DNA of 64,000 bases from Escherichia coli (GTDB lineage: Bacteria; Pseudomonadota; Gammaproteobacteria; Enterobacterales; Enterobacteriaceae), in NCBI RefSeq assembly GCF_011045215.1, contig NZ_CP049201.1. One strand, 5' to 3'. Position 1 is the stretch's first letter. Every line of letters begins with the position of its first letter. The position numbers were made by a program, and so were the translations under genes. This document shows positions 1,301 through 12,368 of this stretch, one piece after another. The notes under the pieces were generated by a model, which was given only the letters and a program-made list of their open reading frames with translations, did not search any database and was not told the origin of the DNA.

Positions 1301-2752
1301 TTATCGCCGCCAGCGTCTGAGCAGGCGGCTTCGCATCCCGGTATCAAAGCGCCAGATATGATCGAAAATGCGCATGATGCCGGGTTTGCCATGTGCAGAC
1401 ATCGCCACGGCATGAAAGCGATGCTGATGTACCCGCTGCAGCTCTTTCACTTTACTCGTCACGTCGTCAGGCAACCGCTGGGCGATAAAATCAGAAATCA
1501 CCACCGCATCGGCATCAAACCATTCCCTGCTTTGCAAGCGTTCCATAATGGCGCGAAAACAACTGGCAAGATCGGTGCCGCCACGAAACTGCTGGCTTAA
1601 AAAACGGATTGCTTGTTCGATGCCTTGTGGGCCTGAAAGCTCATAACGGACGATCTCGGTGGAAAATAGCATAATATAGCAGCGCCGGTTTTCAGCGAGA
1701 GCAATGCGCATCAAAGCCAGGCAGAACGCTTTCGCACACTGTTCATTAAAGCCGCCCATTGAGCCGGAAGTATCCACGCAGACAATAAACGGTCCGCGCG
1801 GCTGTTCGTCGTAATCTTTATGCACCACCGGGCGTTCGATCACTTTTTCACGCCACGACTCACCGTGCAGGCGATAGGTGAGCAACTGTTTTTCCACCAG
1901 CCGACGGTAAAACTCATACTCCAGTTCCGTTATCCCTAGTGTCGCCAGTTCTGGCGGCAGAAGACGTAAAATATCATCGCTTTGTTGCAGACCATCAACC
2001 TGCTCAGGAACCGTCGCCGGTTCGCGCACCATGGTGCGGAAGGTTTCCATCTGCGCATCGTTGCGCGGTATTGATTTGGCTTCCCGGGAACGCCCCAGCT
2101 GTTCTGCCAGGCGTTTCAGTTCCGGCTGTTCGTTAAGAAATTCACCGTATTTCACAATCAACTGATAGTCGCCACGTTTAAGCTGACCGGCGCTCATATC
2201 CCACAGACGACCAGCTGCGGTATTGTTATCTGCGAGAATCGGTTCAAGTTGTCCGCTCAGCGTCATGCGTTCCTGAACTTCACTTAACAGTTGTTCGCGT
2301 TCTTCTTCTAATAGCTGTTGATTTAACGTCGTTGCTTGCACGATCAGACTTAAACGCCAACGCTGGAGGAAAAGCGTATGTAACGCTGAAGTGATCGTGC
2401 TGTTAGCATCAACCAACTGTCGGGCTTGTTCTGCCCATGGGGAATTCAGACGATGCAGTAAGTCCAGGATCTGTGGTAGCTGCACAATAAACTGCGGCGT
2501 GGAGAGGAGCTGGCTTTGCTGATAGCACATCACCTCTTCGGTGAGTTCCGGCGGGACTCGGGCATCTTTCAGCCGACTGCGCAGCGCCTCACGCCAGCGG
2601 GGAACATCATCAGTGATTGCCGCCTTCAGTCGTGGGAATTTTTCAAAGAAGACTGCCAGCTGCGGTGAGGCCAGCAGCGCGATGATCATCTCTTCGATCA
2701 ATCCCTCTTCGCTGACGGCCAGCATCACATTAAGCGTATCCAGCGTTAGCAT
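1301..2752 (-). CDS. viaA: VWA-domain protein ViaA (RavA partner)
   Basis: 483-aa ORF convergent with asnA, overlapping ravA stop; matches ViaA/YieM. Confidence 0.9.
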
Positions 2753-4242
2753 TGTTGTGCCTGGCGAATCTGTGCACTGACATCCTGTAGGCTGGCTTCA
2801 ATGCGACCTAACCAGTCGCCAGGGATAAACAGACATCTTTGCTGTTCGCTGAATAAAGCGTGTTGCTTGCGCCAGTCGCTTTCAAGCTCTTCCAGTTGTT
2901 GTTTTATTTCACCTGGCAGACCTTCAGCCGATGAACCGGGAAGTGCCAGCGTACTGCCTTGTAAACTTACATCGCGTACAACAAGATGTTGGGCGCTATC
3001 CACTTCCAGATTCAATTTCTGGGCAAAGCCGATACCGTTCAGTTTGCCGCGAATTTCACCACCTTTACTCAGCCACTGTTCCAGCGCGTTACGCTCAAAG
3101 GAGATATGAACCACTTCCATATCATGCAATTTTAACGGTTTTTGCAGCAGCAGAGTCAGAGTGGAAGCAGTAACGTTAACAGGAAGTTGATACTGCTGAC
3201 GACGGCTGAAAATGCCGCCCAGACGAATTACCGTTAAGGCTGTTTTATCGCTTTGTTGCTGCTGGAGTTGCAGGTGACGTTGCACAATCGCGCCAAGGCG
3301 AGTCAACATCCCTTGCTGTTGCCAGGCGTGACCGGTCATCAATACATCAATTTGTTGTTGTATCAAATTCAGGCTTTGCGCGTCATACCACAGGCAATCT
3401 TTTAGCAAAATGAGATCAACCGGGGCAACAGCACTGCGACCGCTAAAAAAGGCGCTGGCCTGCAATAATCGAATCGCTTTTTTCCAGCGACGATCCGAGA
3501 CATAAGGCGCATCCGGTAATTTATCCAGTTGCTGGCGCAGCATAAAAATCAGCTCAAATACATGATCGGGCAGCGTAATTTCACCAATCTCTTTCTGCCA
3601 GCGTTCATATTCTTCATCTGTGACCTGCAAGGAGGCTGGAACCGGATTGTCATTTTCATCCTGTTGACTGGTCAGCATGGAGCGGAAATTCGCTTTATCC
3701 TGCACTTTATCTAACCACAGACGAATCAGCATGCGGTCATATAACGCTTCCAGACTGCTGTCTGCTTCCGGCAGCTCGTTGGAGGCCGCCACCAGTAGAC
3801 GCATCGGGATTTTTTCTACGTGTGCACCGTTGCGGAACTGGCGCTCGTTAATGGCGGTGAGCAAGGTATTAAGAATTGCCGGGCCCGCTTTCCAGATCTC
3901 ATCCAGAAAGACAATTTCTGCTTCTGGCAGGTAACCGCTGGTTAAACGTTCATAGCGCCCTTCATCTTTTAGCGCCTGAATAGAAAGGGGACCAAAAACC
4001 TCTTCCGGCGTGGAGAAGCGAGTCATCAGATATTCAAACGCGCGGGCATTCTGAAAGGCGAATTTTAAGCGCCGGGCGATCAAACTTTTGGCAATACCTG
4101 GCGGGCCAAGGAGGAACACACTTTCACCACTTAATGCCGCTAATAAACACAAGCGGATGGCGTGGCTACGTTCATAAAGCCCCTTTTCCAACGAACTGCT
4201 CAGGCGGGAAATTCTTTCCGCTAATAAATGAGGGTGAGCCAT
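2746..4242 (-). CDS. ravA: AAA+ ATPase RavA
   Basis: ORF 2746..4266; start placed at internal Met ([14 protein letters not shown]...); Walker A GPPGIAKS present. Confidence 0.9.
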
Positions 4243-4464: not shown

Positions 4465-6333
4465 ATGAGCACTGATAATAAGCAATCATTGCCCGCGATT
4501 ACCCTCGCGGCGATTGGAGTTGTCTACGGCGATATTGGTACCAGCCCGTTATATACACTTCGTGAATGTTTGTCCGGCCAGTTTGGTTTTGGCGTTGAAC
4601 GCGATGCCGTGTTTGGCTTTTTATCGCTGATCTTCTGGCTGCTAATCTTTGTGGTTTCCATTAAATATCTCACCTTCGTGATGCGGGCAGATAACGCCGG
4701 TGAAGGGGGGATCCTGACGTTGATGTCGCTTGCCGGGCGTAATACGTCGGCGCGAACCACATCAATGCTGGTGATTATGGGGCTAATCGGCGGCAGCTTT
4801 TTCTATGGTGAAGTCGTCATAACACCCGCTATTTCGGTGATGTCAGCCATTGAAGGTCTGGAAATCGTCGCCCCGCAGCTGGATACCTGGATAGTTCCCC
4901 TCTCAATTATCGTTCTCACTTTATTATTTATGATTCAAAAGCATGGCACGGCTATGGTCGGTAAGCTGTTTGCGCCGATCATGCTGACCTGGTTTTTGAT
5001 TCTGGCAGGACTGGGGTTACGTAGCATTATTGCTAACCCGGAAGTGCTGCATGCGCTGAATCCGATGTGGGCGGTGCATTTCTTCCTTGAATACAAAACG
5101 GTTTCTTTTATTGCATTAGGGGCAGTGGTGCTGTCGATTACGGGGGTCGAGGCGCTGTATGCTGATATGGGGCACTTTGGTAAGTTCCCTATTCGCCTGG
5201 CGTGGTTCACCGTCGTATTACCTTCCTTGACCCTTAATTACTTCGGTCAGGGAGCGTTGTTGTTAAAGAACCCGGAAGCGATTAAGAACCCGTTCTTCCT
5301 GTTGGCACCGGACTGGGCGCTGATCCCACTGCTGATCATCGCCGCACTGGCGACGGTAATTGCCTCGCAGGCGGTTATTTCGGGCGTCTTCTCATTGACG
5401 CGTCAGGCGGTACGTCTGGGATATTTGTCGCCGATGCGCATTATTCACACCTCCGAAATGGAGTCAGGGCAAATCTATATTCCGTTTGTGAACTGGATGC
5501 TCTATGTCGCGGTCGTGATTGTGATTGTCAGCTTTGAGCACTCCAGCAACCTGGCGGCGGCGTACGGGATTGCGGTGACCGGAACCATGGTGCTGACGTC
5601 TATTCTCTCGACGACTGTGGCACGTCAGAACTGGCACTGGAATAAGTATTTTGTTGCGCTGATCCTGATTGCTTTCCTTTGTGTCGATATTCCATTGTTC
5701 ACCGCTAACCTCGATAAACTGCTCTCCGGCGGCTGGTTGCCATTGAGCCTCGGTACTGTGATGTTTATGGTGATGACCACCTGGAAGAGCGAGCGTTTCC
5801 GCTTGCTGCGGCGGATGCATGAACATGGTAACTCTCTGGAAGCGATGATTGCTTCGCTGGAGAAATCACCGCCCGTTCGCGTGCCCGGGACCGCGGTGTA
5901 TATGTCGCGTGCAATCAACGTCATTCCCTTTGCGCTGATGCATAACCTTAAACATAACAAGGTATTGCATGAGAGGGTTATTCTGTTAACTCTGCGCACC
6001 GAAGACGCGCCATATGTCCATAACGTCCGTCGGGTACAGATTGAACAACTGTCGCCCACTTTCTGGCGCGTGGTGGCAAGTTATGGTTGGCGAGAAACGC
6101 CAAACGTGGAAGAAGTTTTCCACCGCTGCGGTCTGGAAGGATTAAGTTGCCGGATGATGGAAACCTCCTTCTTTATGTCGCATGAGTCGTTGATCCTCGG
6201 CAAACGCCCGTGGTATTTGCGTCTGCGCGGCAAGCTGTACTTGCTGCTGCAACGTAATGCGCTGCGTGCACCAGATCAATTTGAAATCCCGCCAAACAGG
6301 GTTATCGAACTGGGTACTCAGGTCGAAATCTAA
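4465..6333 (+). CDS. kup: low-affinity K+ uptake transporter Kup
   Basis: 622-aa polytopic membrane [33 protein letters not shown]... Confidence 0.95.
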
Positions 6334-6339
6334 CGCCAG

Positions 6340-6371
6340 ACGCCTCCTTTCTCCATAAGGGGGCGTTTTTG
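6340..6371 (+). terminator. putative intrinsic terminator after kup
   Basis: ACGCCUCC / GGGGGCGU stem (one G-U pair) with 11-nt loop followed by TTTTT. Confidence 0.45.
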
Positions 6372-6468
6372 TTTTCATGGTTAATCACCATGTAAAACGT
6401 TTCGAGGTTGATCACATTTCCGTAACGTCACGATGGTTTTCCCAACTCAGTCAGGATTAAACTGCGGG

Positions 6469-6488
6469 TCAGCGAAACGTTTCGCTGA
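6469..6488. promoter_or_regulatory. RbsR/PurR-type operator palindrome upstream of rbsD
   Basis: Perfect 20-bp palindrome TCAGCGAAACGTTTCGCTGA 12 bp before the rbsD start; a related half-site (AAACGTTTCG) lies near 6395..6404. Confidence 0.7.
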
Positions 6489-6499
6489 TGGAGAAAAAA

Positions 6500-6919
6500 A
6501 TGAAAAAAGGCACCGTTCTTAATTCTGATATTTCATCGGTGATCTCCCGTCTGGGACATACCGATACGCTGGTGGTGTGTGATGCTGGTTTACCCATCCC
6601 CAAAAGTACAACGCGTATCGATATGGCATTAACCCAGGGTGTACCTTCTTTTATGCAGGTGCTGGGCGTCGTCACAAATGAAATGCAGGTCGAGGCTGCC
6701 ATTATCGCGGAAGAGATCAAACAACATAATCCGCAACTCCACGAAACGTTGCTCACTCACCTTGAGCAGCTGCAAAAACACCAGGGAAATACCATTGAAA
6801 TTCGTTACACCACGCATGAACAATTCAAACAACAAACCGCAGAAAGTCAGGCGGTAATTCGCAGCGGAGAATGTTCTCCGTATGCGAATATCATTCTCTG
6901 TGCTGGCGTGACGTTCTGA
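6500..6919 (+). CDS. rbsD: D-ribose pyranase
   Basis: ORF 6488..6919; start at [22 protein letters not shown]... Confidence 0.93.
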
Positions 6920-11375: not shown

Positions 11376-12368
11376 TTGGCTACAATGAAAGATGTTGCCC
11401 GCCTGGCGGGCGTTTCTACCTCAACAGTTTCTCACGTTATCAATAAAGATCGCTTCGTCAGTGAAGCGATTACCGCCAAAGTTGAAGCGGCGATTAAAGA
11501 ACTCAATTACGCGCCATCAGCTCTGGCGCGTAGCCTCAAACTCAATCAAACACATACCATTGGCATGTTGATCACTGCCAGTACTAATCCTTTCTATTCA
11601 GAACTGGTGCGTGGCGTTGAACGCAGCTGCTTCGAACGCGGTTATAGTCTCGTCCTTTGCAATACCGAAGGCGATGAACAGCGGATGAATCGCAATCTGG
11701 AAACGCTGATGCAAAAACGCGTTGATGGCTTGCTGTTACTGTGCACCGAAACGCATCAGCCTTCGCGTGAAATCATGCAACGTTATCCGACAGTACCTAC
11801 TGTGATGATGGACTGGGCTCCGTTCGATGGCGACAGCGATCTTATTCAGGATAACTCGTTGCTGGGCGGAGACTTAGCAACGCAATATCTGATCGATAAA
11901 GGTCATACCCGTATCGCCTGTATTACCGGCCCGCTGGATAAAACTCCGGCGCGCCTGCGGTTGGAAGGTTATCGGGCGGCGATGAAACGTGCGGGTCTCA
12001 ACATTCCTGATGGCTATGAAGTCACTGGTGATTTTGAATTTAACGGCGGGTTTGACGCTATGCGCCAACTGCTATCACATCCGCTGCGTCCTCAGGCCGT
12101 CTTTACCGGAAATGACGCTATGGCTGTTGGCGTTTACCAGGCGTTATATCAGGCAGAGTTACAGGTTCCGCAGGATATCGCGGTGATTGGCTATGACGAT
12201 ATCGAACTGGCAAGCTTTATGACGCCACCATTAACCACGATCCATCAACCAAAAGATGAACTGGGGGAGCTGGCGATTGATGTACTCATCCATCGGATAA
12301 CCCAGCCGACCCTTCAGCAACAACGATTACAACTTACTCCGATTCTGATGGAACGTGGTTCGGCTTAG
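11376..12368 (+). CDS. rbsR: ribose operon repressor (LacI family)
   Basis: 330-aa [33 protein letters not shown]... Confidence 0.95.

Follow-up and report, generated by a model that had tools for sequence, protein, structure and literature searches.

A second RbsR-type site that overlaps a CRP-type site upstream of the rbs operon is conserved across Enterobacteriaceae and partly degenerate in Escherichia

Known two-operator systems and the rbs locus

In the lac operon, the auxiliary operator O3 is positioned at −82, the CRP site at −61.5 and the main operator O1 at +11; O3 adjoins the CRP site, and tetrameric LacI loops O1 and O3 together with CRP. In gal, the operators OE and OI are ~113 bp apart and bracket a CRP-dependent promoter, with the second operator located inside galE, and looping by the dimeric repressor GalR needs HU and dimer–dimer contacts. 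In anti-activation systems, the site of a specific repressor is superimposed on a CRP site so that the activator is excluded, while CytR, placed between two CRP dimers, makes contact with them. For the LacI family at large, ~20% of the regulated operons carry more than one predicted site (Ravcheev et al. 2014, PMC4052901), and the common inter-site distances in multi-site RegPrecise regulons are 13, 22 and 32 bp (PMC4052901).

The rbs operon is a textbook sugar system, and its repressor RbsR is a current model of LacI/GalR allostery. rbsDACBK(R) is listed as a feed-forward loop that is activated by CRP and repressed by RbsR, and activity of the rbsD promoter rises with external cAMP and CRP activity. 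The 2012 curated E. coli annotation assigns a single RbsR operator to rbsDACBKR, and published binding work on RbsR used either this main operator (O1) alone (crystallography and HX/MS) or promoter fragments in which individual sites are unresolved. The RegPrecise regulog of RbsR in Enterobacteriales counts 17 sites in 11 regulons, so that second rbs sites have probably been predicted already in some genomes. In a string search of 8 million papers with the sequences of the upstream site described here (O2), the CRP site and O1, only the O1 crystallization oligonucleotide was matched, and a literature search returned no description of O2, of its overlap with CRP or of a test of RbsR binding there.

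The rbs arrangement shares with lac a main operator just past the transcription start (+11 in lac and ~+9.5 in rbs), a class I CRP site at −61.5 (a predicted position in rbs), a weak, in rbs putative, auxiliary operator further upstream and a repressor of the LacI/GalR family. It differs in that O2, centred near −71.5, shares 5–8 bp with the CRP site, so that co-binding of RbsR and CRP is unlikely, and in that RbsR is a dimer that probably does not loop. A dimeric LacI/GalR repressor and two operators that bracket a CRP-dependent promoter are common to rbs and gal, whereas rbs O2 lies upstream, over the CRP site, and a chimera with the RbsR core does not show GalR-like looping behaviour. The superposition of a specific repressor site on a CRP site is that of anti-activation systems, yet the rbs geometry predicts simple exclusion rather than the CytR type of contact. 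The distance of ~80 bp in Enterobacterales rbs promoters, combined with the CRP overlap, also sets them apart from the short tandem spacings of multi-site regulons.

The DNA analysed is a 64-kb stretch of the E. coli chromosome (hereafter the window), to which all coordinates refer unless stated otherwise; adding 3,926,851 converts them to those of U00096.3/NC_000913.3. The region of interest is the kup–rbsD intergenic region, with kup and rbsD annotated in matching genomes. Of 5,426 complete E. coli genomes, 5,411 matched bases 6200–6620, often with 100% identity; in the intergenic part MG1655 differs from the window at two positions, both outside the O1, O2 and CRP elements. Based on the open reading frame (ORF) list, kup ends at 6333; a terminator scan placed its intrinsic terminator, a stem-loop plus T-run on the + strand, at 6338–6375, separate from O2. 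The terminator, whose sequence (6338–6375) shows no conservation between genera, marks the upstream limit of the rbs control region. rbsD, the first gene of rbsDACBKR, encodes D-ribose pyranase and occupies 6500–6919 (+), as supported by translation and by the RefSeq annotation of identical DNA. Its annotated start is the ATG at 6500, with a GGAG Shine-Dalgarno at 6490–6493; the ORF list places the start at a non-annotated in-frame ATG at 6488, inside O1. rbsR (11376–12368, +) encodes a LacI/GalR-family repressor of 330 aa, identified via Pfam and a match to PDB 9ny7.

Two RbsR-type sites upstream of rbsD

The main operator O1 is a perfect 20-bp palindrome, TCAGCGAAACGTTTCGCTGA, at 6469–6488 (centre 6478.5, ~+9.5), and its sequence is that of the rbsO oligonucleotide of RbsR–DNA crystals; its 14-bp core is invariant in all 81 sequences of the comparison below. 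The first-pass annotation had described this palindrome as overlapping the rbsD start region and had placed a related half-site about 75 bp upstream of it. The palindrome was recovered as described but the overlap was not, as O1 ends 11 bp upstream of the ATG at 6500, abuts the GGAG and covers only the non-annotated ATG at 6488. The related element was also borne out, in the form of a repeat, AAACGTTTCG, that matches at 6395–6404 (+), 6475–6484 (+) and 6473–6482 (−), the latter two inside the O1 palindrome. No other match is found in the 64-kb window, so that all three fall in O1 or O2, versus 0.27±0.51 expected, and none of 100 shuffles contained three; by our own arithmetic from the window density, the probability of a chance copy within ~150 bp of O1 is ~6e-4. 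Two details needed revision: the start-to-start distance is exactly 80 bp, and the element is more than half a site, since it comprises an 8-bp palindrome, AAACGTTT, plus a full right arm and matches at 11 of 14 positions.

This upstream RbsR-type operator, O2, was assigned on its match to the RbsR core and on conservation. It spans 6392–6405 (GTAAAACGTTTCGA; centre 6398.5, ~−71.5), 105 bp upstream of the rbsD start, around the AAACGTTT core at 6395–6402. This core consists of AAAC/GTTT, has CG at its centre and does not vary among the 81 sequences. Set against the RbsR core, GCGAAACGTTTCGC, the right arm of E. coli O2 (GTTTCG) is complete, whereas the left one is degenerate. The outer bases specific to RbsR are G/C at ±5, C/G at ±6 and G/C at ±7. 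Extended by one base, the right arm (GTTTCGA) fits RbsR at +5 and +6 but not at +7, while in the left arm (GTAAAAC) the RbsR-specific bases at 5 and 6 are both absent. With three mismatches to the core, two of them in one arm, the E. coli site may be bound poorly by a dimeric repressor. As a loose 14-mer match O2 is not remarkable (11 sites with ≤3 mismatches to the RbsR core are found in the window versus 4.8 expected); what is notable about it is its closeness to O1 and the exact 10-bp identity.

Two small repeats are also present near O2: an inverted repeat, CATGGT-N5-ACCATG, at 6377–6393, which adjoins it, and a direct repeat, GGTTAATCAC/GGTTGATCAC, at 6380–6389 and 6407–6416. Both are probably fortuitous, because neither is kept even within Escherichia.

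For the comparison between species, rbsD loci from 80 species-level genomes of Enterobacteriaceae were combined with the window into 81 sequences from ~20 genera (Escherichia, Salmonella, Citrobacter, Enterobacter, Klebsiella, Raoultella, Kluyvera, Kosakonia, Siccibacter, Trabulsiella, Pluralibacter, Phytobacter and others). Each of the 81 carries exactly two AAACGTTT cores upstream of rbsD, spaced by 78 bp (6 sequences), 79 bp (46) or 80 bp (29). The O2 14-mer is GCGAAACGTTTCGA in 71 sequences, TCGAAACGTTTCGA in four and GTAAAACGTTTCGA in six (the window plus five other Escherichia lineages), corresponding, respectively, to 13/14, 12/14 and 11/14 matches to the RbsR core. Both arms of O2 are of the RbsR type (G/C at ±5 and C/G at ±6) in 75 of 81 sequences. 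When the sequences were anchored at O2, the information content was 0.1–0.85 bits over the 27 upstream columns, 1.6–1.7 bits at 6392–6394 and 2.0 bits at 6395–6405. As conservation jumps there, and the sequence from kup to O2 cannot be aligned across genera, the left edge of O2 (6392) is where the conserved rbs control region starts.

Outside the family, Dickeya ananatis (Pectobacteriaceae; RbsD 65% identical, with kup upstream) harbours ACGAAACGTTTCGATAACGATCACATTT followed 81 bp downstream by AGCGAAACGTTTCGCT. The notion of a second RbsR-type site upstream of the main operator, which the first-pass annotation had raised, is thus strongly supported by sequence conservation, with a site in 80 Enterobacteriaceae species and Dickeya and a 13/14 match in 71 of 81 sequences. 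More distant outgroups were sought via RbsD, where a word index returned close Enterobacteriaceae only and 50% clusters yielded mostly fragments or proteins of ≤50% identity; among six outgroup-candidate contigs, two were Enterobacter- or Klebsiella-like duplicates, and one was of unrelated context and contained no RbsR-type site. In the rbsD promoters of Photobacterium damselae (1100–1135 of the retrieved segment) and Oceanisphaera (~535–570 of the retrieved segment), two RbsR-like sites overlap at a distance of 12 bp (for example ATCGAAACGTTTGCGTAATCGTTTCGATGG), as in the short tandem spacing of LacI-family regulators. A CRP-like site lies further upstream of these 12-bp tandem sites.

Escherichia departs from this pattern at both operators. 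In O2, the left arm is changed from GCG to GTA in all six lineages, window included; O2 is predicted to be weak in this genus because the change hits the specificity position(s), and in E. coli it is probably a weak, partly decayed site. In O1, a 20-bp perfect palindrome (flank CTGA) is found in Escherichia only, while nearly all other genera have CTAG, CTAA or CTAC as the flank and hence a 16-bp palindrome. The extension of O1 and the decay of the O2 left arm occurred in the same lineage and may be compensatory. The probable weakness of E. coli O2 fits both the single annotated operator and the use of O1 alone as rbsO, and repression in E. coli K-12 is probably exerted mostly via O1. ATGTAAAACGTTTCGA is nevertheless invariant in the six Escherichia lineages, with variation at 5 of the 14 preceding positions; this constancy argues against a full loss of O2 function in Escherichia, although as weak evidence, since the sample is small and closely related.

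The overlapping CRP-type site and the promoter

Immediately downstream, and partly within O2, is a 22-bp CRP-type site, CGTTTCGAGGTTGATCACATTT, at 6398–6419 (centre 6408.5, ~−61.5). Its core at 6401–6416, TTCGA-GGTTGA-TCACA, agrees with TGTGA-N6-TCACA at 8 of 10 positions (two mismatches); the right half, GATCACATTT, is consensus or near-consensus and the left half weak. The core pattern matches 21 times in the window versus 26 expected and is not significant alone, and with the count at chance level the assignment rests on conservation and geometry. TTCGA (6401–6405) and GATCACA (6410–6416) are invariant in 81 of 81 sequences, and the offset from the O2 core to GATCACA/TCACA is fixed at 17 in all of them; a fixed offset is seen in Dickeya too.

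The two sites have 5–8 bp in common: TTCGA serves both as right arm in O2 and as left half in the CRP-type site. The left-arm bases of O2 at 6392–6397 are outside the 22-bp CRP site, so CRP is unable to explain the conservation of these six bases. Only at +7 does O2 deviate from the RbsR palindrome in all sequences, with A in place of C, and this A is that of the CRP half-site TGTGA; conversely, the left half of the CRP site departs from TGTGA exactly where RbsR requires T and C. Such a reciprocal compromise would be expected if both RbsR and CRP read the five shared base pairs.

A generic promoter scan of 6250–6560 returned no pair of sigma-70 consensus elements, which fits a promoter that depends on an activator, and the −10 element was assigned by conservation rather than by the scan. 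The probable −10 hexamer is TAAACT at 6458–6463 (+; TACACT or AATACT in other genera), recognized by the conserved T-A-x-A-C-T at fixed distance: O2 is 63 bp from it in 74 of 81 sequences (62 bp in the others), and the CRP centre at 6408.5 is 49.5 bp upstream of it, a distance fixed in the same proportion (74 of 81). The −35 region (~−38 to −30) holds a conserved block, G.TGGTTTT, at 6432–6440 (+; 1.5–2.0 bits). This block has almost no likeness to TTGACA, and a consensus promoter element does not explain its conservation. From the hexamer we infer a transcription start at ~6470, 7 nt after TAAACT. This start would put O2 at −71.5, O1 at +9.5 and the CRP centre at −61.5, which is where class I sites are canonically found. 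The published rbs operator reportedly spans the transcription start, which agrees with the start proposed here.

Two natural variants affect this region. In E. coli PEC209 (NZ_CM168015.1, 2550–2590 of the retrieved segment), an exact 80-bp deletion between the AAACGTTTCG direct repeats (window 6395–6484) takes out the CRP site, the −35 and the −10, so that a hybrid operator, GTAAAACGTTTCGCTGA, closely precedes rbsD. The junction was found in one of 5,426 complete E. coli genomes; repeated rbs operators can be a substrate for microhomology deletion, and an assembly artefact is possible in PEC209. In E. coli B REL606, an IS150 is inserted in the kup terminator at window ~6341 (1555–3000 of the retrieved segment), upstream of O2. 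This IS150 we take to be the one known from the rbs deletions of the long-term evolution experiment. IS150 of E. coli B was considered as a natural separation of O2 from the promoter and proved uninformative, since the insertion spares O2, the CRP site, the promoter and O1. The ~96 genomes with split matches likely carry this IS150 of E. coli B strains, as checked in REL606 only.

Candidate roles of the upstream site

The first-pass annotation had suggested that the upstream element may permit looping or a second regulator. Of the two, the second regulator was realized, in an unintended sense: the right arm of O2 is the left half of a conserved CRP-type site. From the sequences, geometry, conservation and overlap observed, the reading that we hold to be probable, with real room for doubt, is that O2 serves RbsR as a conserved auxiliary operator, in competition with CRP, and has partly decayed in Escherichia. 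The right arm of O2 (TTTCGA) would double as the left half-site of a class I CRP site, and an RbsR dimer on O2 and cAMP–CRP would need the same base pairs on the same helix face. With their centres 10 bp apart and base pairs shared, the two proteins should exclude each other. In such a scheme, without ribose, RbsR on O1 (+9.5) would block RNA polymerase while RbsR on O2 would keep the activator CRP off, and ribose would free both operators from RbsR.

A more modest reading of the E. coli element is that it is the flank of a CRP site or a vestigial operator that RbsR does not occupy physiologically and that has no regulatory role there. The degenerate left arm in all six Escherichia lineages, the single operator annotated in E. 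coli and the choice of O1 alone as rbsO for crystallography and HX/MS all speak for this, as does the Escherichia O1, whose extended form, a perfect palindrome of 20 bp, could be a sign that the lineage relies on O1. However, the decayed arm plus core (ATGTAAAACG) does not vary within Escherichia, unlike the bases next to it on the upstream side, 6392–6397 are retained though they fall outside the CRP 22-mer, and selection on the ancestral site is clear in all other genera. A vestige in E. coli is a serious possibility, if an unlikely one.

Looping, in which RbsR would bridge O1 and O2 into a ~80-bp repression loop that encloses the CRP site and core promoter in the manner of lac O1–O3 or gal, appears distinctly improbable. 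It has in its favour two like operators that flank the promoter 78–81 bp apart and are kept across Enterobacterales, and a layout that resembles lac; moreover, looping is known for some dimeric LacI/GalR proteins and may be common, as suggested by the authors of the chimera assay. However, RbsR is reported to be predominantly dimeric from 3 μM down to 10 nM, and it has no segment that matches the C-terminal tetramerization helix of LacI: its Pfam LacI HTH and periplasmic-binding-protein domains span residues 3–329 of 330, and RbsR, which matches PDB 9ny7 (‘Ribose operon repressor'), aligns to LacI only as far as LacI residue 310 of 360. When looping was assayed in vivo, spacing had a <2-fold effect on LLhR, a chimera with the regulatory domain of RbsR; GalR- and TreR-based chimeras did respond to spacing in the same assay. 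The spacing itself may be unfavourable too: at ~7.5 helical turns it would put O1 and O2 on opposite faces, and taxa differ in it by up to 3 bp, a drift that no indels elsewhere make up for. The pairs of distances from O2 to the −10 and from the −10 to O1 are (63,16), (63,17), (62,16) and (62,17), and the variation in O1–O2 spacing arises in the −10-to-O1 spacer. On these grounds the looping proposed in the first-pass annotation is judged the less likely of its two suggestions. A particular form of it, in which a ~80-bp loop like the gal repressosome forms via DNA-dependent contacts between RbsR dimers and has gone unnoticed owing to the weak O2 of K-12, has a slim chance of being right; were a loop to form, Salmonella, Klebsiella, Enterobacter and Citrobacter, with their 13/14 O2, would repress rbs much more tightly than E. 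coli.

Use of the site by another LacI/GalR-family protein (PurR, Cra or another paralogue) is highly improbable: the AAACGTTT core is common to the PurR, Cra and RbsR motifs, PurR is the closest paralogue of RbsR, and E. coli O2 scores ~10/14 against the Cra consensus and 11/14 against that of RbsR, but 75 of 81 genomes have the RbsR-specific bases at ±5 and ±6 on both arms and the promoter is one that RbsR controls, and on these arm-specific positions (motifs distinguished according to the description of Figure 8 in PMC4052901) PurR and Cra were rejected as binders.

A third operator, inside rbsD at 6741–6754, was considered and rejected, as its 11/14 match has a poor right arm and is kept in only 58 of 81 sequences. 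This RbsR-like 14-mer, ACGAAACGTTGCTC, is part of a stretch, 6729–6754, in which third codon positions carry 1.5–2.0 bits among the 81 species, versus a gene-wide third-position mean of 1.23. The synonymous-site conservation could be an RNA-level constraint, such as DsrA pairing, rather than an operator; DsrA pairing in rbsD mRNA has been reported.

The architecture is of a familiar type, and competition between RbsR and CRP at O2, if true, would be an incremental rather than a conceptual gain. It would nonetheless add an anti-activation layer to ribose control beyond the curated single-operator picture, and would provide a clean natural case of one short sequence that codes for two regulators. 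A regulatory difference is predicted between Escherichia, with its decayed O2, and the other enterics, in which O2 is intact. Such a layer could also help to explain the low rank of ribose in the hierarchy of sugar use.
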